A stretch of DNA of 57,397 nucleotides, the filler included, from Basidioascus undulatus (lineage: Eukaryota): NCBI GenBank assembly GCA_000826855.1. It is 5 parts of 5 records of this genome, joined end to end, with 100 filler letters (N's around TTAATTAATTAA, not from the genome) between each part and the next. Parts side by side here need not be neighbours in the genome. Positions count along the whole stretch, not along the records: positions 34,524 to 45,919 come from JTLS01001014.1; 4 more parts are not named here. One strand, given 5' to 3'. Every line of letters begins with the position of its first letter. Position 1 is the stretch's first letter. The notes below the pieces were generated by a model. That model was not told the DNA's origin. It ran no database searches and saw only the letters and a list, made by a program, of their open reading frames with translations. A program made the position numbers and the translations under genes. Of the stretch, positions 11,142-57,397 are shown one piece after another.

Positions 11142-11314
11142 TCACTTCTTTCCCTGGCCCATCATCATCTCCATCGCCCTCCTCGGGTCCAATTCAATCC
11201 CTGCCTTCTTGAGCTCATCAAACACGCGCTGCGACGCCGCGCGGAAGTCGGCGTCCGCGGCGATCTTCATCAGCGTCATGAGCGACGGCTTTTGCTGGGT
11301 AGTCATGTCGAAGC
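11142..11314 (-). CDS. Last exon of a small hypothetical protein; rest lost at contig end
   Basis: After a CAG acceptor: GFDMTTQQKPSLMTLMKIAADADFRAASQRVFDELKKAGIELDPRRAMEMMMGQGKK*, with strong GC3 codon bias. Confidence 0.7.
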
Positions 11315-11419
11315 CTGTGTGGGTTGAGTTGTCAGTTCGGGGAAGGAGGGAGAAGGGAGGGAGAAGGGAGGGAGAGGGGAGTGTCGCGTCGGTTCGGTGT
11401 CGTCGTCGTCGTTGTCGTA

Positions 11420-11519: not shown

Positions 11520-13284
11520 TGTTCCCCCACACGTTAGTATCACCTCCTCTCCCTCATTTCAATCAGAACAAATCAAGACTAACCGTCGCCGCCGTCGTCG
11601 TAGGCGTTTCAACCGGCTCGTCGTCCTCATCTTCCTCCTCCTGATCCTCTTCCTCCTCCCCATCGTCCTCCTCGCCACTGCGCACATACCCGTCCTCTTC
11701 CTCGATCCCCGTCCACTGCTGTTCATGCTCGTGCTCCGCTCCCCCGCCCTCGCTCCCAAACAGCATTTGCTTCTCGCGCTTCATCTCGCGCTCGACCTCG
11801 CGCTGGAACTCGCGCGCGAGGTGCGCCTCCTCCTCCGCCTCCGGGTCGCTGTCGTCCGACGCGAGCAAGCGCTCGAGGTCCTCCGAGTTGTACTTTCCCG
11901 AGCCGCCGGAAATACCGTCCGCGTCGGACGAGGAGGATGAGGTGCTCGAGGAGGTGTGCGCGCGCGATCGCGATATGGGCGGGCGCGCGGATGGCGCGGC
12001 GGGGAGGGTCGCTTTCGCTTTGGAGGGAGAACTGGGCTTGGTGTCTTTAATGGGGGAGGAGGTGGATGCGGAGGGCTTGGGATTTCGGTCGCGCTTCTTC
12101 TTGGCGGATGTAGGAGTGGGGAGACGGCTGGGGAGGAGGGCGAGGTCGTCATCGCAGGAGTCGGAAGAGCTGGAGGATGAACTGGACGAGGCGATCGCGG
12201 GGTCGTCCTCCGGCAAGTCGGACAGGGACGAGCTGTCGGCGCCGGGACTGGAGATGAGCGAGCGGACGGCGATCGCAAGCGGCTCGTCCTCGCTTGAACT
12301 CCTGCTGCTGCTGCTGTCATCGATCTCGACGACGGGCGCCGGCGACGGGCGCGGCGGCAGCTTGAGCTTGACGAGGAACTTGCCCGCGCCCTTCTTGGGT
12401 GTCTGTGCGGCAACAGCAGACGGAGCGGGCGAAGCGGGCGGGCGCGGGATATTTGACGGAGGGGGAGGGGAAGGGGAAGGGCTGAGGCTGATGGGCCGCG
12501 CGACGCTGCCCTTGCCGCAGGTGCATGCGCCCACGCAGACGGGACAGATGTCGTCGTCTAGGTCCGAGTCGAGGTCGACTATCGCCGGCAGCGGCTTGCG
12601 CGGGCTGGGCACGGGCACGGGCGCGGGCGCGGGCGCCGGTGCGGGTGCAGGTGCGGGTGCAGGCGTTGCGATGGGCTTAGAAACGGGGCGGGGCTTCAGT
12701 TTGGGCTTGGAGGTGGATAGCCCGCTGAGGGTGGAAGCGATAAGGGCGGAGGCGGAGGTAGAGGCGGAAGGCTGGGGAGCGGGCGAGGGAGATGGGCGCG
12801 GGGTCGAATATGACTTTATATAGGAGTGCGAATGGAAGTGAGAGTGAGAATGAGAACTGGAGGCGTGCGATTGCGGGTGGGAGTGCGAGTGCGAGTGGGT
12901 GTGAGAGTGCGAGCAGGAGTTCGAGGACGTGCTCGGCTTGGGCTTGGGAGCCGAGCTCGGTACGGGGGAGTGGGAGGGCGTGCGGAAGGATACGGGAGTG
13001 GTTGAGCGAGAGCGACTGGCGTTGTTGTTTCCGAAAGAGAAGGGGAACGAGGCTGCCAGCAACGGAGAAAGTAGTGTCAGCGCAAGAAATCAAGGAGGGA
13101 ACGTACTGCTGCCGCCCGAGCTTCCTGCTCATCTAGAGTACACCTCAGGACGCAGTCCACCATACCCCCAACCACCAATACCTCTCGTCCAAAACACTCA
13201 TCCCCCAAACCTAAGCCCAGCAGGAAGGAGCGACTCACCCTGGCCCCCGACCGCCTTTCTCTGAGGACCCGTAGTCTTTGCCAT
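11520..13284 (-). CDS. Low-complexity Ser/Pro/His-rich and acidic protein with CxxCxxxCxC motif; 3' end lost
   Basis: 499-codon exon 11563-13062 with GC3 bias, containing DDDICPVCVGACTCG, basic NLS-like stretches and an acidic tract. Probable first exon MAKTTGPQRKAVGGQ at 13284; phase of the small 5' exons not resolved. Donor GTTAGT near 11583. Confidence 0.7.
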
Positions 13285-33513: not shown

Positions 33514-34362
33514 TCAGTCTCCGCCCACCTCCACCTCCGCGCCCAGTCTGCGGATGACCTGCAAGATCGCAAAACAGGTATGAGTCTTTGGTAGAGCGGC
33601 ACCGAAATGCGAGAAGGACAGCAGCAGGAGCAGACGATCCGACCCACCTCCTGCAGCATCTCCGGCTTGTCCCTGTACTCGGCCCCGCGGACCGCAACGG
33701 TGTAGCTTGCTGAGGTGTAGTAAGAGCCGAGCGCGGGCATCAGCGAGTGCGGGTGACAGTATCAGGTAGAAAGGCGTGTAGAGGGACGGCGAATATGGAC
33801 GAACCGTCTTCGATCTTCCGCAGCGAAGCCTCCATCACGTCCATCTTCTTCCGGAGGTCCCGGACGTACGGTTGGAGGGGGTCGAACTCTGCTCGGGTGC
33901 CGCAAGCCGTGGTTGAGGTCAGGTCGCTCCGCTCAACGCTGCATGTGTGGATGGAGGCGACGCACCCTCCTTCAACTCCCTCACAAAAGCGCACGCGCTC
34001 CGTGCCGCATCGTGGTCGCCCTTCCCGATAGCGTTGATGGACAGGCGCATAAGCTCGCCTGTCAGGTCGGCCAGGCCGAGGGCGTATGCCGCGGGGGAGA
34101 CGTCGAGGATGGGCTTTGGGGCCGGGGAGGAGGAGGGGGTGGGGGAGGAGGTGAGGAGTTCGCGCAGTTGGGTGAGCGTGAGGAGGGAGGAGGTTTGGAG
34201 GTAGTGCAGGAAGGAGACGGCTTCGATCTGCAGCGGGGTGGCTTGCTCAGTGAGGGGCGCCCTGTTCCGCGCCGCCTCGACAAGAGGGAATGAATAATAG
34301 GAAACACGACTCACGAATTCTTCCAACCCGCCCTGCACAGCCCTCGCATACTTCCACTGCAC
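33514..34362 (-). CDS. TSNAX: Translin-associated factor X (TRAX), 5' part lost at contig end
   Basis: WKYARAVQGGLEEF|IEAVSFLHYL, YALGLADLTGELMR, LRKKMDVMEASLRKIED and YTVAVRGAEY; acidic catalytic residues present. Stop 33514-33516. Confidence 0.9.
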
Positions 34363-34423
34363 CTCGGGCCTCCCCTTACCTTCCTCCCTCTCTCCCTCCC
34401 CCTCCTCCTCCTCCCCCTCCTCC

Positions 34424-34523: not shown

Positions 34524-34614
34524 AGCCCGCGCGGACGCGTCGGCATGCTCTCCAAAGCCATGGCGATCTTACAGAAAGAGCCCCTTGGTTAGAAATGGAC
34601 TATATGCTGGTCTG
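34524..34614. repeat. 91-nt terminal direct repeat, left copy (identical to 45829-45919)
   Basis: AGCCCGCGCGGACGCGTC...ATATGCTGGTCTG is the first 91 nt of contig 4 (44 nt exon plus 47 nt intron of JEN1). Confidence 0.97.
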
Positions 34615-35669
34615 CATGATGCGTACTGCGTTGCCCCCTGTCAAAGCCCGGGGGTCAGCGAAGAACGGCAAGCAAGCGGACGTCGTGCTGGAATGGACGG
34701 ACAGACGCCTCCCATCCCGATGCCGAACAACGCGCGAACAGCGAGGAACTGGCTGTAAGTGCTAGCGAAGGCTGTCGCGACTTGAAGTCCACCGATGAGG
34801 ATCATGTTGACGACCTTCATACACACGTCGAGCTATCAGCGGTCAGGCGTTTCTGAAAGCAATACGCGGTTCCGTACGCACCATCGGCCACTTGCGCCCA
34901 CTGGACAAGGTACGTGAAAGATTTAGGGTTCTCCCGGCGGTCAAAGTGCAAGAATGTTCTATACTTACTACAGGTCGCCGAAGACGCCGAAGATCGCGGC
35001 GCCAACCGAGCGGAAAACTGAGACTGGGGTGTTATAAGTAGAAGCTTTTGTGCCGTAAAGAGGTAATGAACGACGCGCGGAGTGTCAATGTGATGGAGGT
35101 CGTGACGCTGGTGCGGGAGACTGAGGGTGAGAGGAGTATTGTAAGTCCAAGTTAGAGTGTGGGGTTGCTGAGGCACGAACCGTTGTAGAAGACTGCCATG
35201 CGCGAGACCGAGAGGGAGACGCTCTGAACAAGGCGGACAGCTTAGTCGAGGAGGCTGCGAGGGAGAACAGGGGGTGGCTTGCGTGGAAGTCGTAGCCATC
35301 TGGAGTTCGAAACGTGGGTGAGTGTACGACCTCGAGCTACTGAGTGGAATCCCCTCTCACCGACAGTCCAAGCTGTCGCTCAGGGCTGTCAGTCATGCCC
35401 CTTCTCCAGCGCGAAGAATCGATTCTCACCAGCCAGGCCGACAATGAAGAAGATCCAATTCTTGAACGTGAGCTCGCGGAGAAGCGAGATCGGGTTGTGC
35501 AGTGGCTCATAATCTTCAGAACAACCCGAAGGAATGTGAGGCTCGACGTCGAGCGTGGGGCTTCCATCGAATGCGACAGTCACTGACCCGCAAACTTCTC
35601 CTCCAGCTCGCCGTTCTCGTTGACGATCGTGATCTTCTCGCGCGTGAAGAGGCTCTTCACAGCGCCCAT
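34524..35669 (-). CDS. JEN1: JEN1-family carboxylate/H+ symporter (MFS), 5' half
   Basis: ATG 35669: MGAVKSLF...NPISLLRELTFKNWIFFIVGLAAWTVDGYDFH...FRSVGAAIFG...RKWPMV...FLAVRALFGIGMGGVWGNAIAMALESMPTRPRG. Confidence 0.9.
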
Positions 35670-36269
35670 GGTGGGCTTGAAGTTGCAGCAAGCGCCTTAG
35701 AGCAGGAGCGGTGAGCGGTGAAGAAGGTGAGAAGGGTAAAGGAAAGGGAACGCAGACAGACGCAGTCGGTCGTTTTATTGACTGGTCGTCGCCCACAGCC
35801 CGCAGTCCCTGCCAGGCATCAGACTGAGGGCTGGCCGATGAGCTTACCTGACCTTCAGATCGATCGCGAGTAGTAATAGGTGTAACTGATCTAAAACACA
35901 TCGCGGGCTCATCAAAAGGTATTCACGCGTCGAAAACAAAGCTTCTCGGGTTCTGCTGCCGCCGTTTCTGACCCTGGGCGATCTTCAGTATGCCTTTCTG
36001 TAGACTGATTCAATCGGGAAAATGGTTCTAAGGAGTGGGACTTTTTGGCAATTATCTTTGCAGTGTGCGGTTCCTCGGACAGGCTGTGGAGGCAGCACAG
36101 CACGATGTCCGTGAAGAGAAATTTGTGTAACGCCTGGTTCATTCATCGTGTAAGCTCGTTCTACTTCTCTCCGCGTCAAAACACGACCCTGTCTGGCGTC
36201 ACATGCAAAAGTTCAGCCCTCTCAAGCAGCGCCCGGAATGCCCCATTCTCCCGACGCCTATAAATTTAC

Positions 36270-36986
36270 ATTTCTAGCCATGCACTGCTAAGAGAGTGCG
36301 CGTCGGTAGAGCGTACGAACTCGAATCGTTGTATGTGCGCGTTACTTATAAAGCGCTTCAAAGTGAGCAAGGCAGATCGATGTTGATGCGGAAGGTGGAG
36401 ATCGGGACAGAGGCTGTCCACTCCAGCGTGTCGGTCTCGAGGTGTCCGGCAAAGGGATCGCAGACCACCCCCAGATCTTGAGCAGCTCCAGAACGACCTT
36501 ATATATGTCCGCACCGAACCGCGGAGACCGAAAGCGCAGGCGCAACGATGCTGATTCGGGGCGAAGGCCCTCCATGGCACGGCAGAGAGCCCGGGCCTGA
36601 GGGAGTGGACCCAACAGCTCAGACGAGACTTTGAGAGTTTTTACCGCCGAGCATGCACCGAGGATGTCGTTGATGATGTCTGGCTTTGCTTGTACAGAGC
36701 TGTAATGATGACGAGCGTCGATGCTCGCGCCGCGACTCGTCCTTCCGCAGGTAAGCCAAGAACGAGTCGTACTGCGCCCGGTCGATGAGGCGGACGCTGC
36801 ACACGAGATGCTCGAGGGCCCAAGGTGTGATACGCTTGCAAATGAAGAGCGAGGAGAAGGGCGCAGTACCCTGAGCAGGCTCCGATTGCGCTGTTTGAGA
36901 TGCGATGGATGGGGGACCGTCGGCGAAGTAGGCTTCGAAATTATTTGGGAAAGTATCTCGTTCGGGAAATCGAGAATGTGAAGCAT
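36270..36986 (-). pseudogene. F-box-like/LRR accessory protein remnant
   Basis: MLHILDFPNEILSQII (F-box-like start), then ICKRITPWALEHLVCSVRL and DILGACSAVKTLKV in different frames; at least two frameshifts. Confidence 0.55.
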
Positions 36987-37585
36987 GCTTCTGGAAGTAA
37001 GCTTGTTTGGTTCGGTTGGGCGGTAGAGAGGAAGATGGTGATGGCAAGCGAAGAGGGGCCGGAACACCTCAGCCTGATTCAGACCTCGTGTCGAACCGCA
37101 AAACATTCCGCTCATTGCCGCAAACCCGAAGTGCCACGTACGTTAGCCCATCCAGTCTGAATCAGCTCATGCAGCCTTTGTACGCGGATCCGTTGACACT
37201 CAACGACGTTAAGCCGGGCGGGCGGACAGTGGGAGAGAGAAGCGAGTGACGACCCCGCGCATGCGGAACGCCATGCAGTCGACTTTCCGTACGGTCGTGG
37301 CTTCGCGAGCTGAAGGCGTTGTCCTGGAGATGAGAATTTACTTCGGGTATCATTGTCATGGTCATCCGATAATCGAATGCTGGCCAAGCATGAGGCCGCG
37401 ACAGCACGTCGACGAATGTCCAGCCTCGTCACAACGCGGGCGGCGAGCGAGTAGTCGGGTCGAAGACGGCATCGAGGATGATCGTGCCGGAAACAAAGCG
37501 ATCTATGCAACGCGAGAACGGAGCAGATTCAGTCACGAGACGCACAGCGCCCATGGAAGTCTGCGCGGGACGACGCCCTTTCATT

Positions 37586-39827
37586 TCATGTGTCCAACTC
37601 CCTCCCCTCGCCCTTGCCCAGCCCACGCCCCGCCTCCCAACCCTCCAACAGAATCTTAATGCGCGTGACGCTCGACTCCGTGCCCTTCTGCCATCCGGCC
37701 GCACCGCTGTTGGTCGCGTCCCTGAGAGCAACGAGGACCTTCTCCGCCTGGCGGCCGTACACTGCGCGCCAGCGTTCCCCGGCAATGTCGAGGAACGTCG
37801 CGACGAAGAGGGGGACGGGCTCGAAGTTGGGCATGGGCGGGCGGAGCGCGTGCGAGAGCCAGGTCCACCCCGCCGGGAGGCGCATCGCGGGCGTGACTGC
37901 GCCGGGAGGGGACGTGGGCGGGATGGGGAGTGAGGCGGGGAGCGGCGGCGTTTGAAGGATCGCGAAATAGAGGGAGAGGATGCCCGCCATGCGCTCGTTG
38001 TGTTGCACGCTCGTCTCGTCGCCCGCGGTGTGCCCGAGCCGCTTGCGGTAGTCAGCCTGGGACTCGCCCTATTCGGCCAAATAAGCGAACGTCAAGGCTA
38101 AGGGCTCTGGCCTCGCAACGAGACGTACCTCTCGTTGCTTGGGGTAGAACGGCACCACCCATGGGCACTTCTTGACGAGCCGCGCCATGAGCACGTCGCC
38201 GAGCGTCTCGTGGCCGCCCATGATCAGGCCGAGGACGAGACGGCCGAGCGGGTACGCCGTCTCCTGCTTCGCGACGACCTCGGCTTCCGCCTGGCGGATG
38301 AGGCACTTCGACAGGTGGTTGAGAAGCCAAATGTAAGGCGGTGCGGTCGGGCCCAGCGAGCGTGCCAAGGAGAGAATGTCGCCGATCGCAGTTGTCTGGA
38401 GAGGCGAAGCCACTGGGTCAGCGGATGGTACGCAACAGGCTGCGCTTGCAGACGTACAATGCGGGCGATTTCCGAACGCGAGTTAGTGAGCTGGCCGATC
38501 TTCGGCGTGATCTGCCTCTTCAGGGCATAGCATTGCTTGCGCCAATCAGGGTTGGTGGAGACGGCGGGTAGGACGTTATCCTTGATCTCCTGCTCGTTCC
38601 CGCTCTCGTCAGCACGCGAAGGTCCGAACAGGCCCGGCTTCCCTTCCCTGCTTACCTTCATCTTCGCCTGCCACCACTCGTACTCCTTCCCCGCGCCCTT
38701 CAGCCCACCTTCCTCCATCCGCTCCTTATCCCGCGCCTCCTGCTCCTCCCGCGCCTTCTTCTGCTTCTCCTGCGCCTGCCGCTGCGCCTCGGCCTTCTGC
38801 GCCTCCTCCTTCTGCGCAGCCTCGCGCATGGCCTTGGCCTCGCGCTCGGCGGCCTCTTGTCGTACGCGGTTCGCGGCGGCAAGCTCGGCGGCGGCCGCCT
38901 CTTGAGCTTGCTTCTCTGCTGCGAGGATGGATTTCTCGATACTCTGAAGGCGTGCATCCGCTATCAGCAATCGAGAAGCATCGGAAACGACAAGGGAGGG
39001 AGACACTCACATCCCATAGGATCTTATTCCTGCGCTCGAACCCGTCCTTCTCCCGTTGCGCCTCCTCCTGCTTCTGCACGTCCAGCTTCTCGAGCAGCAG
39101 CCGGACCTCGTCCATCTCCTTCTGCGCAGCGGCTCGCCGCGCCTTTTCGGAAGGACTGAGGTAGTCTCCGGCACGGGTGTGGTAGGCGGTGGCGGTTACT
39201 TGGAAGCGGAGCGTGGCGGATTGCTGCGCCCGACCCGTCAGAACTGCATTGAAAATAATCCGCATGAAACTCACCCAGGCAGCTTGCTGCGAGCGCTGGT
39301 TCCATCTCTCCCACTCATCCAAGCATGACGACGCTCTTACAGAGCGGATGAGCTCGGGGTCCGGGCTGGGCGACGCGCGAGATGGAGAGGCGCGTCCAGG
39401 TGAAGGTGCGGCATGCGATGATGAGGGCCGTTTCAGGATGGGTCGAGTGGTTGGCGGTGTTGATCTGCACATCCTCACAACGGTCAGCATCGACGAGAGG
39501 GTGGAGGGACTGTCAGACGCACCGGGTGTAGACGGGCTTCACAGGCCATGCCTCCTCCTCGCTGTCCTCCTCGCTTTCCAACCCCGACCCCAGCTCGATC
39601 TCGTCATCCGACGAGTCCAGGCCGTACACATTCCGCCGGCGTGCAGGATGTACTTTCCTTGGTCCGTTCCTGTTGCAATTCCTCGGTATCAGTAGGCGCG
39701 AACGGCGCGGAGATGGATCTTGAGCGCACCGGGAACGCGTCCGGAGCGGGGATGCGAGGTAGTCGTCCTCCGAGCTCGAGCTGTCGAGGTAGTCCTCTTC
39801 GCCACCACAGGGAGCGCCGAACCGCAT
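37586..39827 (-). CDS. GLE1: mRNA export factor / nucleoporin GLE1
   Basis: Acidic/Ser N-terminus (MRFGAP...), coiled coil, then GLE1 domain: KRQITPKIGQLTNS, YIWLLNHLSKCLIRQAEAEV, AYPLGRLV, LMARLVKKCPWVVP, ERMAGILSLYFAI and YGRQAEK. Confidence 0.9.
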
Positions 39828-40241
39828 GATGGCGCCGGTGAAAGGGGAAGATAAATACGGTGAACGGATGGATGGGGTGAGGTTCAAGCTCAACTTGGCG
39901 GCATCGGACGCCATGTTGCGGGCGTTCCAATTTCCCGCGCTGCAGTGCTTTCGGCAGCATGAACTTGCCAGGACCGATATAGCTTCTGCCCCAAAGCGCC
40001 AAAGAACGGTCCGAGTGCCCGCGAAACACCTTCTTTCAGAAAAGTCAGCTGTTCACGTTCATGTAAGTTTACAATTAATATTCTCGAAATATGTCAGTAG
40101 AACTTAGCCGCAATACGCTTGTTCCTCGGCGACACGACTCACACGAAGCGGCGAACTGACGCGTCCTCGACGCGCGCCGTCCGCCTTCTCTTTCGACCCC
40201 TCTCCCATCCGTCATTCACCGCACTCACACCCTCGACTAAC

Positions 40242-40870
40242 ATGGCTGACTCTGTACGCATACTGACCCACTCATAGACGTTCGATCGCATCGCTCAATG
40301 CTCTTCCAATGCCAGGCCTCGACCACTTCCTCGGGGTGGTTCCGCCTCGTGTCCTCCGACGGCTATCACTTCGTCGTCCCGCGCGAGGTGGCCACGAAAA
40401 GCGGGATGATCGCGGACATCCTCAAGGATGACAGTCAGTCCACTGGACCACTGTTACTGCGCTTTTCCAGGACGCTGATCGTTTTGAGCAGGCGACTTTG
40501 CGGAGGTGGCGAGCAACCAGGTGACCCTAGATTCGATCAGGTCGGTCCGAATATCATGCACGGGACTATCGACTGGGTTGGCTTACGCAAAGGAATGCTC
40601 AGGGGTGCGGTCCTGGAGAAGGTGGTGGAATACCTGCTGTTCAAGCACAAGCACGAGGGCGCCACCGCGAAGGACGTCATCCCCGACTTCCAGGAGCGCA
40701 TTCCGCCCGAGATTGCTCTGGAACTGTGAGTGACTGACACTAGTTTATTCTCTTGTGTACTAAACAATCTCTGGGCAGATTGATGGCGGCGGACTACTTG
40801 CAGAGTACGTCCCGATTGTACTTGACTCCTCCCCATCGTACTGATCTCCGTCGGCCTCTTTCCAGCGTGA
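40242..40870 (+). CDS. ELC1: Elongin C (SKP1/BTB/POZ fold)
   Basis: WFRLVSSDGYHFVVPREVATKSGMI...GAVLEKVVEYL...IPPEIALELLMAADYL. Final 5-nt coding exon CGTGA at 40866-40870. Confidence 0.93.
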
Positions 40871-41729
40871 TTGTGGAAGATTCGATGAACCAGATGCACT
40901 GCATTATACCAATGTCTTTTTCAGCTTATGGATTGCCGTAGAAGTGCGCAGTGCTCGTCTCCGACCATATCTTAATTGAGATGGGAAACGCCACCACGTA
41001 CGTCTGTCGTGCAGTTAGCCCATAGGCTCCTCAAACCTCGAAAGCTGTGAGGTGTTTATGTGCATCAAGACGCACCGGGGGCTTCAGCAGAAGCAGGTAG
41101 GGCTGCTCCTCTCCGAAAGTCCTGTGGGTTCAGGGCTTCCTTCACGCAGTCTGTCTTCTGCTGTTCCAGAAGCGCAGACCGGCTTTCGGGTGGATCGGTT
41201 GCGCTATTAGTGTGTCACCTCTTGTTTTCTTATCAATAATACTAAGATCCTCCCCTTTATAGTCCTATGAAGACGCGGCTGGGCTATTGAGGTGTCATTC
41301 GCGTGTTCATGTTAACCCTGGCCGAATCTGCCGCGATATGCTCCGTTACCATCTCATGCACCTGTTTGCTCACCTTGGTCCCTGTCTGTGTGAATAATGT
41401 CTCTTCAACAGACCTTCAAGTGGTACAGCATTGTTGTATTCTTTGCAAAGAAACCGTAAGCCTTCTCATTCCAGGGATAGGCCTCCACCTCGCCGGGCGC
41501 CACAGCAAGAATGCTAACGTTTTCAATGCAAATTGCCAGAATTGAATGGCTTCGGCCTCGACTTCATCTGATTTTGTACCTTCTTTGGATCAGTTCATGC
41601 CGGAACAGCCGGGTACATGTCCCCGAGCTACCCCTTCGTCCAGCAGGATGTGGCCCCTTCCGACGTTGCACCCCTCATCGCCTCCTTCCCTTTACTCATC
41701 ACTGACATCGACGTCCAAAATTCTTCGCC

Positions 41730-43722
41730 ATGACTAGCCTTGCTACTGATCTTCAAAACATACTCGATCGATTCACGAGCGGCCCCTCTCCGGACCTGCC
41801 CGTGTGCGTTCCGCGACGCCAGTGCACTCTTCTCAGCAAGCTGACCGGTAATGAGCTACAGTGCGGTCGCCCACGTCGCTAGCCTTGATGGCAAGCTGAC
41901 TTTCAAGGGAGCGTCCGGAAAGCTAAAGGAGGGCTCGGATGAACCCGCAAAGCCGGATAGCGTATTCTGGATGTACGCATGTGCTTGAGCTGTGCGTTCT
42001 CGAGGTTGCTGACCAGCTCTGATCGACACCATCAGTGCGTCCTGCACCAAGCTGGTCGTAGTCATCGGCGTCCTCCAGGCCGTTGAGAATGACCTTCTCA
42101 AGCTTGATGAGCCCCTGCCGGAAAAGGTCCAGGCCGTCATCCCGAAGCTCATGTATGTATGGCGTTCACGGTCTCCCCATTGACGCAAGCAATACTGAAT
42201 TGCAGCTTTTCGAAACAGTCTGACAGGCTATGAGGAGGACTCAAAGACTCCAATCCTGGTCTCGACGGAAAATACCCCAACCCTTCGCCAGTGCCTTCTG
42301 CACATCGATGGCAGCGCCCTAATTTTCGACGACCCCATCATTCGCGACTACATCCTTGCTAACAAAGATACTCTCCGAGGTCCGGGCACTCTAGTGCGTG
42401 ATTATACTTCCAATAATCTCTTCATCCCGCCCTTACCGGTGTTTCTGCAGAGCGACGTGCAAAGCCCGCTTCGCGCTGAGCCCGGTCAGCGATGGTGGTA
42501 TGGCCACGGCATCGATTGTGCGGGAAGCTTTTGTCTCCTCTCTTTCATGATGATATACGATCTATGGCTCACATAGGCGCTGCACAGACGCTGGTCTCGC
42601 TGTCGAGGCCGTTACGGGTCAACGGTAAACCGTAGTGGCCCGCTCCTGTGCTGCTTTTCACCAATAACGTACCTTTTTCTCCTCAGTCTGGGCGATTACC
42701 TCCGCCAAAACGTATACGAGCCCCTTGGACTTACCCAAATCAGCCATCGTCCGCTCGAGTACCACGACGCTGTCGACCGCGCGCAACTGCGGGCCCGCAA
42801 GCCGGACGGCAGCTTCGCGCCGCTGCCGCACTTCTTCGAGGAGGTGGAATACGATGCCGGTGGAGCGGGGGTGCGCAATGCTTATACCTTCTCAGTCGCT
42901 CAGAGATACTCTCGCTAAATAGTCGGTTCCTTCAGATTCACGGGTACGCGTTGGAGAACCATCGCCTTTAGGTAGACGCCAGGCTTACGAAGTCACTCCA
43001 TAGGTCTCTCGAGGATTACACGCAGCTCCTGCTCACGCTGCTGGGCAACGGAACACACCCTTCCGGCGTGACGATTCTGGAGCCCGAGACTGTCGAGCTG
43101 CTGCGCTCCCCGGGGCTGACTCTTGAACAAGCTCGCACGCTCGATACCACCATTCCCTGCGTACGTCCGAGGTAGTCGCTGTTCCGGCCGAGTAATTAAC
43201 ATTTCTCCTTATAGTCTTTCCCGGTGTTGTCAAACGAGCACGCTCTTATTCCGGGAACCGAGAAGAACTGGGCACTGGGTAAGTTTCGGCCATAGCGGTA
43301 CACCACTAACAGAATTCTAATATCTATCTTTAGGTGGGTTGGTGACGCCCAGCGGAGGTCCATGCCGCGGCGCAGGGTCTTTGTCGTGGTGCGGCTTGTC
43401 CAACGTGAGCCTGCCCACGACACAGCCGCGAAAAACTGTCTTACTTTTCTTCCCAGATTTACTACGTGGTAGACTGGCAGAAGGGTTACGTCGTGAGTCT
43501 ATCACGTAGGGGACTGGGGGGCTGCCATTCGCTGAGTACGACTTGGAATAGGCAATCGCGGGAACGCGTGAGTACATGCTCCGCAGTGCACTTTGAAGAC
43601 GGACCTCTCTCACTCTCTCTGACCATTGAGCAGAGCTGCTACCCTGCTGGGATGCGAAGTCCCTTCAGTTCTGGAACGAGTTCCTCAAGGTTGTTTTCAC
43701 AGCCGCGAGCAAGACGGAGTGA
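41730..43722 (+). CDS. Beta-lactamase/transpeptidase-like serine hydrolase (LovD/EstB-like esterase)
   Basis: SxxK motif ASCTK, PTLRQCLLH, EPGQRWWYG, LGDYLRQNVYEPLG, GSLSWCGLSN and QLLPCWD. Stop 43720-43722; not every junction verified. Confidence 0.85.
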
Positions 43723-43963
43723 AGAGTCCGTCAAATGCTTCTCTTACGTTCAAAGCTTTCGGGGCGCATTTGTGCGAAGTCATACATTGGTCTACGAGCT
43801 CAGTGCAGAACAACACCAAACTCGACAGCGTGCATACAGAACACGGCGGCAGCGCTCGAGCTTCAAGTACATACAGACATTCACGTCGGAGCAGAACAAC
43901 CGTGACCAAGAACAAAGAAGACATGGGTGGGAGAAGCCAAGAAGAGGAAGGATTTCGTAAAGC

Positions 43964-45919
43964 TCAACGCTTGTTGGTGGCCTCGACGGTCTCGACCTCG
44001 CCCTTCTCGCCCTTGAACGAGCCGCTTTCGAGGTCTTGCGTGTGGTTAGACGGGCCAGGCTGGTGCTCGCCAGGAGCTACCGCTCCAGTCGCGTCTCCTT
44101 CGCCGGCGATGCGAGCGGTTTCTGCAGACGATAGAGTCAGCAAAGGGTCGCTACCTGGGAATGGCGGTGCGAAAGACTGACCGAAGTGGGATCCCCTCGC
44201 TTCTTTCCCGACTGCAGTCCAGATCGCGATACCAGTCGCGATGAGCGCCGTGGCGACGCCTTGCAAGAAGACGTAGCTCAGCGATGCGCAGTCACAGGAT
44301 AAACGTCAAGCTCTCACCCATCGTCGGCCCGTACGCCGGCGCGAGTTTTCCGGTACGGCTCTTGATTAGGTTGCTCTCCGAGATGGCGGTGACGATCTCG
44401 GCGGCGGGCGAGGAGATCCTGCATCGAAGCAGCGTGAGCTAAAGAGCGGGATGTCGGGAAGTGTCCTGACTTGCATGTTCCCGATCTGATACGCAATGCC
44501 TGGATCAAAAGAGACTTAGTCAAGGGGAGCGGTGCTGATGCTTCCACTGCCGGGGCCATACCTGGGAAGGACGACCGGAAAGCCGGGGGCGACAGCTCAC
44601 TGCGGATGGAAGAACGGGTCAGACGTGGAGAAGCAGGACCGATGAAAATGATGTACTTACTTCAGGTGGATTGGGATGACCTACTCAGTGTACTTATGTC
44701 AGCCTCTAGACTCAATATAATTTTAACGACGAAGGCCTACCCCCCACGCTCCCTGTACGAAGAACTGCGAGCGCAACCATCAACGATGTGAGTCTCCCTC
44801 GTATTCTCGAAACTGCAACAGATGTCCTGCTTACTTGAAGCATGAAAGAGCCCGCGGACAGTCCGCCGATGGAGTTGGGGAGAATCCAAGCAGGAATGCT
44901 AAGCTCAGGTCGGGATGGTCGGCGCGGATTTGTAGGCGGATGTCAACGCAAAGAAACCTACAGGCAGGCCGCGAGGATAGCGGAGATGATGATGGCGCGG
45001 CGGCGTCCGATAGACTGGCTCACGTATCCGATCACTGCTCCTCCAACACAAGCTCCAGTCTTGGCGATGCTGCAAACGAGGAGTCAAGGCGCTGGTCGTT
45101 GAAAGAAGGAAATGATGCGCACATGGTCGCAACGCTCGCCTGCTGGCTGCTGTACTCCTTGCCTCTGTTGGAACAATGAAAGTTTTAGTTCCAGGCCGTA
45201 TGGAGCTGAAATAAATGTTAAAAAAATCTCAATGTTGCACGAAGGTGGGGTAGGAGTCTTGCGTAGTGTGGCTTCAAACGGGCGGTGTCAGACAACGTTG
45301 GCGCAACGTTGCCGTGCCAGAGGTGAAGCAGGGGCCCTCACGAGAAGAAGTTGAACAGCGCCATGAGGACGCAAGCGTAGATGCAGCGGCGCCAGCTGGT
45401 TTTTAGGACTTGACCGGCCTCTTTCATGAATTGCTTGGTATGATGTCCTCGCTGACCAGACTTTATTTTGGACTCGCTGGCACCGTCATGTGGCCGACAA
45501 GAAAGCTGTAATTGAAGAAATACTGACAGCCTTGGCCTTAATAAACTGCTCCGACTCTGGACAGAAGCAACGAGCGATGCCGACCAAAACGCTCGCGACC
45601 GCGCCAACGTAGAAGAGCCTGAAAACGGCGGTCAACAGTGGGGAACCATCGCCGCCACGACCAAGACTCACATCTTGAACGACTCGCTGCTCTTCGGTAC
45701 GATGGACAGGTTGAGGACCGCCGCAAGCAAATATCCCAAAGAATAGCTTGAAGTCGCAGAGTCAGTCACGGCGGGGGAGGATCGGATGCCCTGCAGAAGC
45801 TCACCCTTGCTGCAGGATGCCGCTCATGAGCCCGCGCGGACGCGTCGGCATGCTCTCCAAAGCCATGGCGATCTTACAGAAAGAGCCCCTTGGTTAGAAA
45901 TGGACTATATGCTGGTCTG
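43964..45919 (-). CDS. JEN1: JEN1-family carboxylate/H+ symporter (MFS), 3' half
   Basis: ALESMPTRPRGLMSGILQQGYSLGYLLAA, CPESEQF, LMALFNFFS, SQYIGRRRAI, FFVQGAWG, ELSPPAFRSSFPG, AYQIGNM and GKEARGSHF. Stop 43964-43966. Confidence 0.9.
45829..45919. repeat. 91-nt terminal direct repeat, right copy (identical to 34524-34614)
   Basis: Last 91 nt of contig 4 match its first 91 nt exactly. Confidence 0.97.
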
Positions 45920-55999: not shown

Positions 56000-57397
56000 T
56001 CAACCCATTACTCCCCTAAAGTGCACGAGGTCCGAGGATAAGCATGCGCCCTGTAAGAACGAAGAGGGACTAGGAGTAGACGTACCACCCGCACCCCTCG
56101 CCTTCTTCCGCGTCGGCGCACGCCGCTTCGTCCCCTCCGCCCGCGCGTACAGCCGCCCGTCCGGCCCGGCCATCGCGAGCGCCTTCTCCGCGCAGGGAGC
56201 GTTCGTGTGCCAGTGCCTGTGCACGCACACACCCACTGCTTGATCAGCGTCTGCTCGCCCACGGTGACGCAGAGAGAGGAAGGGGGTAGGGGGAAGGCAG
56301 ACCTGCGCAGCGCGTCGGAGCGCGGGAACGCCGCGGGGCAGTTGGGGCAGACGTACGGCCTGTTCAATATGGGAGAGTCAGCGGGGCGATGAGAAAGGGC
56401 GAGGAATGTAGGCGGACAAACGGACTTCTCGTTTGTGTGCGTGCGCGAGTGCCGCTCCTGGTCGTGCTTCCTCGCGAACGCGCGCGGGCAGTGCGCGCAT
56501 CTGAACGGGCGCGGCGCGGGCGGTGCCGGGCTCGGGTGCGGGTTCGGCGGCGGAGCGGGGTCGCGTAGGAGTTGGGGAGCCTTTGGGGAGGGTAAAAGGG
56601 AGAAGGAGGGGAAAGAGAAGGGGGAAGGAAATGCAGTGAGGTCTTGCGCTTGCTAGGTAGTGGTTGGGGCGGGGGAGAAGGATGATTGACTTGAGCTTGA
56701 AGATCCTGCGCGGCGATGGAGCACGGTGGGGCGGAAAGAGGGGGAAAGTTGATTAGCGGCCCGATCATGACGAAGTGAGGTGAGGAAGAGTGGGGAGAGG
56801 GTAAACGCAGACGACGCACGGGGTACGGTGCATATGCGGAGTGGGCGCTGCTCGGGTAGAAAAAGTCGCCGGATGAGATGGGAGTGCAGATGCTGGTGTG
56901 AGGCAAGGGGTAGGCGGAGAGGGCGTCTTCTGGGATGGAAGGGAAGGGTGAAGGGGAGAGAGAGAAGGACGTGGTGGTGAGAGGGGAGAGCGAGCGGGGG
57001 GATGCAACTGCGGGGAAAAGAACGTTCAGTCCCAGGGTCCTCCAGGAAGGATGGGAATGAAGAGGGACAGAGACGGTGGAGAGGAGATGGAGAGGAACGG
57101 GGAGGAGGAGGCTGGAAGGGGATGAAAGGGGACTGCGCGCCTGATCGGGGAGAAGCCGCCCCAGCCCACTTGGCGCTCGCAAAGCTCAGCATCAACGGCG
57201 CAGGCGAGGCGGGACCCGGGCTTGTCGAGAACCACGGGTTTTGTGCGGACGTGGGCGTGAGCGGCGAGATGGGCGACGCGAAGCCCGAGCCCGAGCAGGA
57301 CGACATGGGGGACATGGACGACAGCGGGGGAGCGCTGCTGCCGAGGCTGCTGCTGCGATGGTGGTTGTTGGGGTGGTGCTGGGGGTGGGGCTGAGGG
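56000..57397 (-). CDS. C2H2 zinc-finger transcription factor, 5' end outside window
   Basis: RPFRCAHCPRAFARKHDQERHSRTHTNEK|PYVCPNCPAAFPRSDALR|RHWHTNAPC with a Ser/Pro-rich N-terminal region. Stop 56000-56002. Confidence 0.9.

Follow-up and report, generated by a model that had tools for sequence, protein, structure and literature searches.

An 11.4-kb contig of Basidioascus undulatus with identical ends and a predicted Jen-family transporter gene that runs across them

Introduction

When chromosomal arrays of ribosomal DNA (rDNA) are assembled, the contigs can appear circular; this is described for a Shovill assembly with a depth of 493x (PMC8620147) and for Flye assemblies, where such contigs contained two or three rDNA units (bioRxiv 10.1101/2022.03.26.485928). 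Tests that read circularity from the overlap of contig ends are presented as standard in plasmid and virus pipelines (Platon; PMC8530359). In yeast under nutrient limitation, amplification of HXT6/7, GAP1, SUL1, DUR3, and DAL4 is reported (PMC8150848), and the circles that carry HXT6/7, CUP1, and ENA are attributed to recombination between paralogues, that of GAP1 to recombination between long terminal repeats (LTRs) (PMC11879418). Here, we analyze a contig of the basidiomycete Basidioascus undulatus (JTLS01001014.1, assembly GCA_000826855.1) whose two ends are identical and which carries, across the join of these ends, a gene predicted to encode a Jen-family carboxylate transporter.

The window, meaning the whole stretch of DNA that was analyzed (57,397 nucleotides, nt), consists of five contigs of 11,419, 11,402, 11,402, 11,396, and 11,378 nt, separated by N44-TTAATTAATTAA-N44 spacers, and their G+C contents range from 0.559 to 0.581. 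The contig under study is the fourth (contig 4; 34524-45919, 11,396 nt), and all positions given below count along the window.

Identical ends and a gene that reads across them

The first and the last 91 nt of contig 4 are identical at all 91 positions (34524-34614 and 45829-45919), in direct orientation and with a spacing of 11,305 nt, which leaves a non-redundant unit of 11,305 nt (34524-45828). An exact match of this length at the two ends cannot be due to chance. Contig 4 is the only one of the five whose prefix equals its suffix, and no 25-mer is shared between any two of the contigs. The features on which the following analysis relies are these:

34524-34614: left copy of the terminal overlap, which in minus-strand reading holds 44 nt of exon (34524-34567) and the 47 nt of intron that precede it (34568-34614); from the prefix-suffix identity and the spliced alignment.
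45829-45919: right copy of the terminal overlap, redundant with 34524-34614; from the prefix-suffix identity.
34524-35663, minus strand: 5′ part of the predicted Jen-family gene, about 11 short exons with micro-exons of 11-19 nt; from tblastn and spliced alignment.
34627-34637, minus strand: micro-exon of 11 nt, WGNA with a split codon, between introns of 65 and 59 nt; from spliced alignment and direct reading.
43964-45828, minus strand: 3′ part of the predicted Jen-family gene, about 14 exons, stop codon at 43964-43966; from tblastn and spliced alignment.

Both ends of contig 4 sit in complex, unique coding and intron sequence. Among the other four contigs, several end in low-complexity tracts (11310-11419, 11520-11630, 34314-34423, and 57288-57397) made of GGGAGG, GTC runs, CCTCC, and GGTGG/GCTGCT, of purine/pyrimidine or triplet type, a pattern typical of the breaks of short-read assemblies.

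When the exon open reading frame (ORF) of the transporter gene was searched against the protein collection, one match was found among 31 candidates, a major facilitator superfamily (MFS) transporter of Rhodocollybia butyracea (P0001, 520 amino acids, carrying PF00083 and PF07690), with 62% identity over the exon. With P0001 as the tblastn query against the rotated unit, the high-scoring segment pairs (HSPs) were colinear: residues 113-149 correspond to 34814-34704, residues 155-176 span the join (34564 to 45804), residues 176-285 correspond to 45748-45335, and the order holds to the C-terminus at ~43982. A spliced alignment, in which only GT/GC...AG introns were permitted and in-frame stops were forbidden, gave a model of 25 exons against residues 14-518 of P0001, with 224 of the 487 aligned columns identical (46.0%) and 20 gap columns, and the MFS homology thus spans the whole length of the gene at 46% identity. 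The 24 modelled introns measure 46-119 nt, all but one of them 46-74 nt, and use 19 GT and 5 GC donors; because this spacing is uniform, it indicates that they are real introns and not frameshift decay. The model is unreliable at its five GC donors, in the exons upstream of 35505, and at the start codon.

The exon at the junction is 68 nt long (34567..34524, then 45828..45805) and reads IAMALESMPTRPRGLMSGILQQG. Upstream of it lie a 59-nt intron (34568-34626) and then the 11-nt micro-exon at 34627-34637, and the sequence ahead of this WGNA micro-exon ends in ...GIGMGGV. At the join itself, homologue and model are equal in residue number (WGLAASIALENLP vs WGNAIAMALESMP), with no residue lost or doubled.

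Jen-family transporters are described to share the motif NXX(S/T)HX(S/T)QDXXXT in transmembrane segment 7 (TM7) (PMC4335979). The corresponding residues of the model, NFFS-HTTQDSYPT (the hyphen marks intron 45272-45341, which interrupts them), conform to this motif. The rejoined gene is therefore predicted, from its sequence, to encode a Jen-family carboxylate transporter on the minus strand. The name JEN1 used in the initial annotation goes beyond the evidence, which places the gene at the family level and does not choose between Jen1 and Jen2/3 or between mono- and dicarboxylates. A search of the PDB with P0001 returned only distant MFS transporters and no Jen structure. The gene is also extremely intron-dense, with ~25 exons for ~500 codons and micro-exons of 11, 12, 17, 19, 20, 24, and 25 nt; the neighbouring GLE1 gene, by contrast, has long exons, including a 260-codon ORF.

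Most of what the initial annotation had said of the two ends was confirmed. It had reported identical 91-nt ends that include 47 nt of intron (100% identity, the intron boundary coming from the spliced alignment), a unit of 11,305 bp (the spacing of the repeat), no such ends on any other contig (0 of the 4 others), and a single frame restored by joining the ends, where its peptide was reproduced and the whole gene proved colinear with P0001. It had also placed a 5′ half and a 3′ half of the gene at opposite ends of the contig; the locations are right, but "half" is not, as the left end holds about the 5′ third (homologue residues up to ~154 of 520).

Behavior of the unit in a simulated assembly graph

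The real unit, together with random flanks, was used to build an error-free, single-strand de Bruijn graph with k = 91, which gave the following outcomes:

Case A, circle alone: one isolated cycle of 11,396 nt, the observed length, with its first k equal to its last k.
Case B, two-copy tandem duplication: four unitigs (11,306, 6,091, 6,090, and 181 nt) without identical ends, the unit contig beginning at the duplication boundary.
Case C, chromosomal copy plus free circle: the same outcome as the two-copy tandem duplication.
Case E, ten tandem copies, edges below 0.2x the maximum coverage removed: an isolated cycle again.

The length of contig 4 (11,396 = 11,305 + 91) is the one that an isolated cycle yields at k = 91, and the k of the assembler was probably 91. 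Because the break falls in the middle of a gene, in complex unique sequence, contig 4 acts like a cycle opened at an arbitrary point and not like a unit cut at a rearrangement boundary. Hence the DNA carries the transporter gene whole, and the split is an artefact that arose where the cycle was cut open during assembly. For the same gene, the initial annotation had stated that it is intact only when the contig is circularized, which is true of the contig file and not of the organism, a break of this kind being expected from a cycle opened at an arbitrary k-mer. Its proposal of a circle or a tandem unit survives in part: a closed cycle is the best supported of the three explanations it offered, while a simple duplication, or a circle beside a chromosomal copy, disagrees with the contig, as the ends differ in the simulation. 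Sequencing reads that join 45828 to 34615 cannot prove a circle, because this join is the intact gene itself and such reads are to be expected wherever the gene is whole.

The tetranucleotide usage of contig 4 correlates with that of the other contigs at r = 0.856-0.923, and the others correlate among themselves at 0.840-0.922. An origin from a cloning vector or plasmid was rejected, as 72,556 plasmid records, searched by megablast with the complete contig, gave no match. Since the tetranucleotide usage agrees and no plasmid or vector match was found, contig 4 is nuclear DNA of the same organism as the other contigs. The composition profile has no abrupt break such as would mark a junction. 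The whole window holds no transfer RNA genes, which were sought as recombination sites, and the only tandem repeats, eight short rows (periods of 12-21 nt, mostly within GLE1), include none of relevance here.

Competing explanations for the self-closing contig

The explanation that we favor, and to which we give about an even chance, is that contig 4 represents a multi-copy head-to-tail unit, either an array or an abundant circle. An 11.3-kb unit made of the Jen transporter gene, the ORF at 36345-37142, GLE1, elongin C, and an esterase would be present head to tail in several copies. For nuclear genes of single-copy type to end up in a lone cycle, the links to the chromosomal flanks would need to have been dropped, or never to have been present; a several-fold depth of the unit would bring the single-copy flank edges below the relative-coverage cut-off of the assembler, which would prune them. 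The assembler would then open the closed cycle at an arbitrary k-mer and print this k-mer at both ends. Amplification is favored by a length sum that comes out cleanly, by the cut at an arbitrary point, and by published cases in which tandem arrays were assembled into circles. As a chromosomal tandem array, the unit is a tentative possibility; as a free circle of high relative abundance, it is an unlikely one. The copy number, the topology, and any gain from extra transporter dosage are what we infer.

Several points weigh against an amplified unit. All five of its genes look complete, so the real junction would have to be confined to the intergenic part, estimated at ~27% of the unit, and two random breakpoints would both be intergenic in an estimated ~7% of cases, a minority outcome. 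A search of the unit for repeats able to mediate recombination yielded nothing beyond a direct pair of 30 nt at 80% identity, which, like an inverted pair of 20 nt at 85%, is at chance level; this is weak evidence, because the cycle would collapse such a repeat to one copy. Arrays that repeat 11 kb of protein-coding genes are uncommon in nature. Both the copy number and k = 91 are presumed values, and a pair of paralogues also gives the exact contig in simulation when a 91-nt run is imposed. Finally, a non-exhaustive literature search on JEN1 amplification led to a study (PMC8150848) in which JEN1 appears only as the gene deleted in an experiment that duplicated ADY2.

The same end overlap and graph simulation apply equally to the specific case of a free extrachromosomal circular DNA (eccDNA), in which the culture that was sequenced would contain the unit in many copies, comparable to the yeast GAP1 or HXT6/7 circles. 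Circles bearing transporters have a precedent in yeast (PMC11879418), and gene-bearing eccDNAs are reported from the filamentous fungus Magnaporthe oryzae (PMC9694575). Circle and array are not separable by sequence alone, and a circle that coexists with a chromosomal copy closes the contig only where it greatly outnumbers the chromosome (case C vs case E). Where a culture is not under selection, arrays are more common than stable circles of high copy number, which counts against a free circle, and we regard this explanation as having a low probability. A free, stably kept multi-copy circle that combines the Jen transporter with housekeeping genes (GLE1 and elongin C) is distinctly improbable; at the extreme, it would have no chromosomal flank, and a small circular chromosome would carry the sole copies of these genes.

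The contig could also be explained, without any amplification, by two Jen paralogues in the same orientation, ~4-10% diverged and 11.3 kb apart on a linear chromosome, that have one exact 91-nt run in common. The contig would then span the run in copy A, the four intervening genes, and the run in copy B, and the "restored" gene would be a chimaera of two real genes. Such a pair needs no junction and fits the five complete genes, and Jen genes are described as often multi-copy in fungi, with six in Yarrowia (PMC4335979). When the contig was placed between randomly mutated second Jen parts, with a shared run of exactly 91 nt imposed and k = 91, it was recovered exactly for 16 of 100 pairs at 5% divergence, 78 of 100 at 8%, and 93 of 100 at 12%. 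For a divergence uniform over 3.2 kb, the expected number of exact runs of at least 91 nt is ~6-13 at 1-3%, 1.5 at 5%, and 0.13 at 8%, and the probability that there is exactly one is highest at 5%, with a value near 0.33. At k = 91, however, the run must be exactly k long, and the chance of one such run and no other is ~0.002-0.017 over 5-10% divergence. The paralogues would thus require that the run happens to match k in length, or else that the assembler leaves the complete shared stretch in each of the two flanking contigs. The 47 nt of intron in the run, normally the fastest-diverging sequence, count mildly against them, and no second Jen-like sequence was found on the other four contigs, which cover ~46 kb of the genome (all 5 tblastn HSPs with E ≤ 1e-3 lie on contig 4). 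Overall, a pair of diverged paralogues is doubtful.

The initial annotation had also considered two very young, near-identical JEN1 copies flanking the segment, which would account for the exact shared stretch, intron included. Near-identical copies, however, collapse over their full length and would place the break at the outer edges of the gene and not after 91 nt. With a divergence of 1-3%, one expects 6-13 exact runs of at least 91 nt, and the contig was recovered from none of 100 pairs simulated at 2%. This possibility is disfavored to the point of being effectively excluded, and it shares with causes that are not listed here what remains of the probability. Another explanation is that the closure comes from the assembler or from post-processing, for instance because a short repeat caused a false join, tips were clipped at gaps in coverage, or contigs were extended, in which case there would be neither a head-to-tail junction nor a second copy. 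The assembly is fragmented into 11-kb contigs, several with low-complexity ends, which suits an artefact. But one would not expect a false join to yield a 25-exon gene whose order agrees with that of its homologue to the exact residue, and the length arithmetic suits a clean cycle, making an artefact very unlikely.

Other genes of the unit

A Pfam scan of the unit covered 123 stop-to-stop ORFs of at least 55 codons and, together with the PDB and protein searches, led to the following features:

36345-37142, minus strand: ORF of 266 codons stop-to-stop, formerly called an F-box remnant, with no family assigned.
37589-39006, minus strand: domain of GLE1, a messenger RNA export factor, in three exon ORFs (PF07817, E = 1.5e-20, 5.6e-27, and 3.4e-10).
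40250-40726, plus strand: elongin C (ELC1), divergent from GLE1 (Skp1_POZ, E = 1.5e-9).
40727-41705: the longest gene-free spacer of the unit, with its lowest G+C (~0.50).
41706-43172, plus strand: esterase/transesterase of beta-lactamase fold (LovD-like), in several exons (PF00144 below the cut-off, and a PDB match).

The three GLE1 exons scored 74, 95.1, and 40.1 bits against a cut-off of 24 and cover profile positions 4-248 of 250; the N-terminal exons probably reach ~39950. The closest relative, and the one match among 8,000 scored candidates of the protein collection, is the protein of Violaceomyces palustris (45% identity), and a Protein Atlas lookup with the GLE1 ORF gave only a hint at the phylum level. 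The N-terminal part (38700-39160) is rich in Glu, Ala, Lys, and Arg and coiled-coil-like, with long open frames on both strands and rows of short tandem repeats; the opposite-strand ORFs there are not genes. Elongin C scored 38.3 bits with PF03931 (cut-off 21.9), and all 20 of its 20 PDB matches are elongin C (E ≤ 6e-4). GLE1 (minus) and elongin C (plus) stand head-to-head over ~300 nt (39950-40250), which suggests this intergenic stretch as a candidate shared bidirectional promoter.

The esterase matches PF00144 in two exons, below the cut-off, at profile positions 53-80 and 163-218, and the PDB transesterase 4lcl/4lcm at E ~3e-5 over chain residues 118-218. Its exon ORFs begin with a plausible N-terminal Met (~41730), include an SxxK exon, and extend to ~43170, and the gene looks full length; its ORF found no match among 127 candidates of the protein collection. 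Searches of this collection with the Jen, GLE1, and esterase ORFs yielded no relatives close enough for a comparison of gene order or paralogues. By inference only, the spacer at 40727-41705 is a candidate site for the true head-to-tail junction.

The matches to Pfam and PDB thus support the GLE1, ELC1, and esterase of the initial annotation, whereas its F-box remnant found no such support. The ORF at 36345-37142 matches no Pfam family at E ≤ 1, F-box included, and a HMMER search against 1.84 billion representatives gave two weak matches (E = 2.5e-7 and 1e-5). One of these is a 706-amino-acid protein matched in nine short stretches, which suggests similarity of low-complexity sequence, and the weak matches are uninformative on truncation.

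Comparison with known systems

Whatever the sequencing depth turns out to be, the gene should be annotated as one intact Jen-family gene and not as two fragments. Should the depth confirm the favored head-to-tail unit, contig 4 would represent a segment around a carboxylate transporter that is amplified naturally, as an array or a circle, in a wild basidiomycete; a mechanism described mostly in laboratory yeast (HXT6/7, GAP1, and CUP1) would thereby be extended to an unsampled lineage and a new class of transporter. If the depth is that of a single copy, the finding reduces to a pair of paralogues or a quirk of the assembly.

The closest likeness is to rDNA and other tandem arrays, where a head-to-tail unit of ~8-11 kb is described to collapse to one self-closing contig (PMC8620147; bioRxiv 10.1101/2022.03.26.485928). 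Unlike these, the unit of contig 4 holds five protein-coding nuclear genes and no ribosomal RNA, and the rDNA cases were identified by their high depth. The pipelines for plasmids and viruses use the same criterion of contig ends that match each other, but they expect plasmid or virus genes, while contig 4 has intron-rich nuclear genes and no plasmid match.

With the HXT6/7 and GAP1 amplifications of yeast, the unit has in common a nutrient transporter on an amplifiable segment, formed there via direct repeats or paralogues (PMC11879418; PMC8150848). In contrast, no flanking LTRs or paralogues are seen at contig 4, where a closed unit would show a mediating repeat only once, and the organism is a poorly sampled basidiomycete and not Saccharomyces. 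A further difference from the HXT6/7 and GAP1 units is that contig 4 carries GLE1, which is essential in yeast. Finally, the predicted transporter resembles the Jen1/Jen2/Jen3 carboxylate/H+ symporters as an MFS protein with the TM7 motif NXX(S/T)HX(S/T)QDXXXT but differs from them in gene structure: yeast Jen genes are intron-poor, whereas the gene that runs across the join of contig 4 has ~24 introns.

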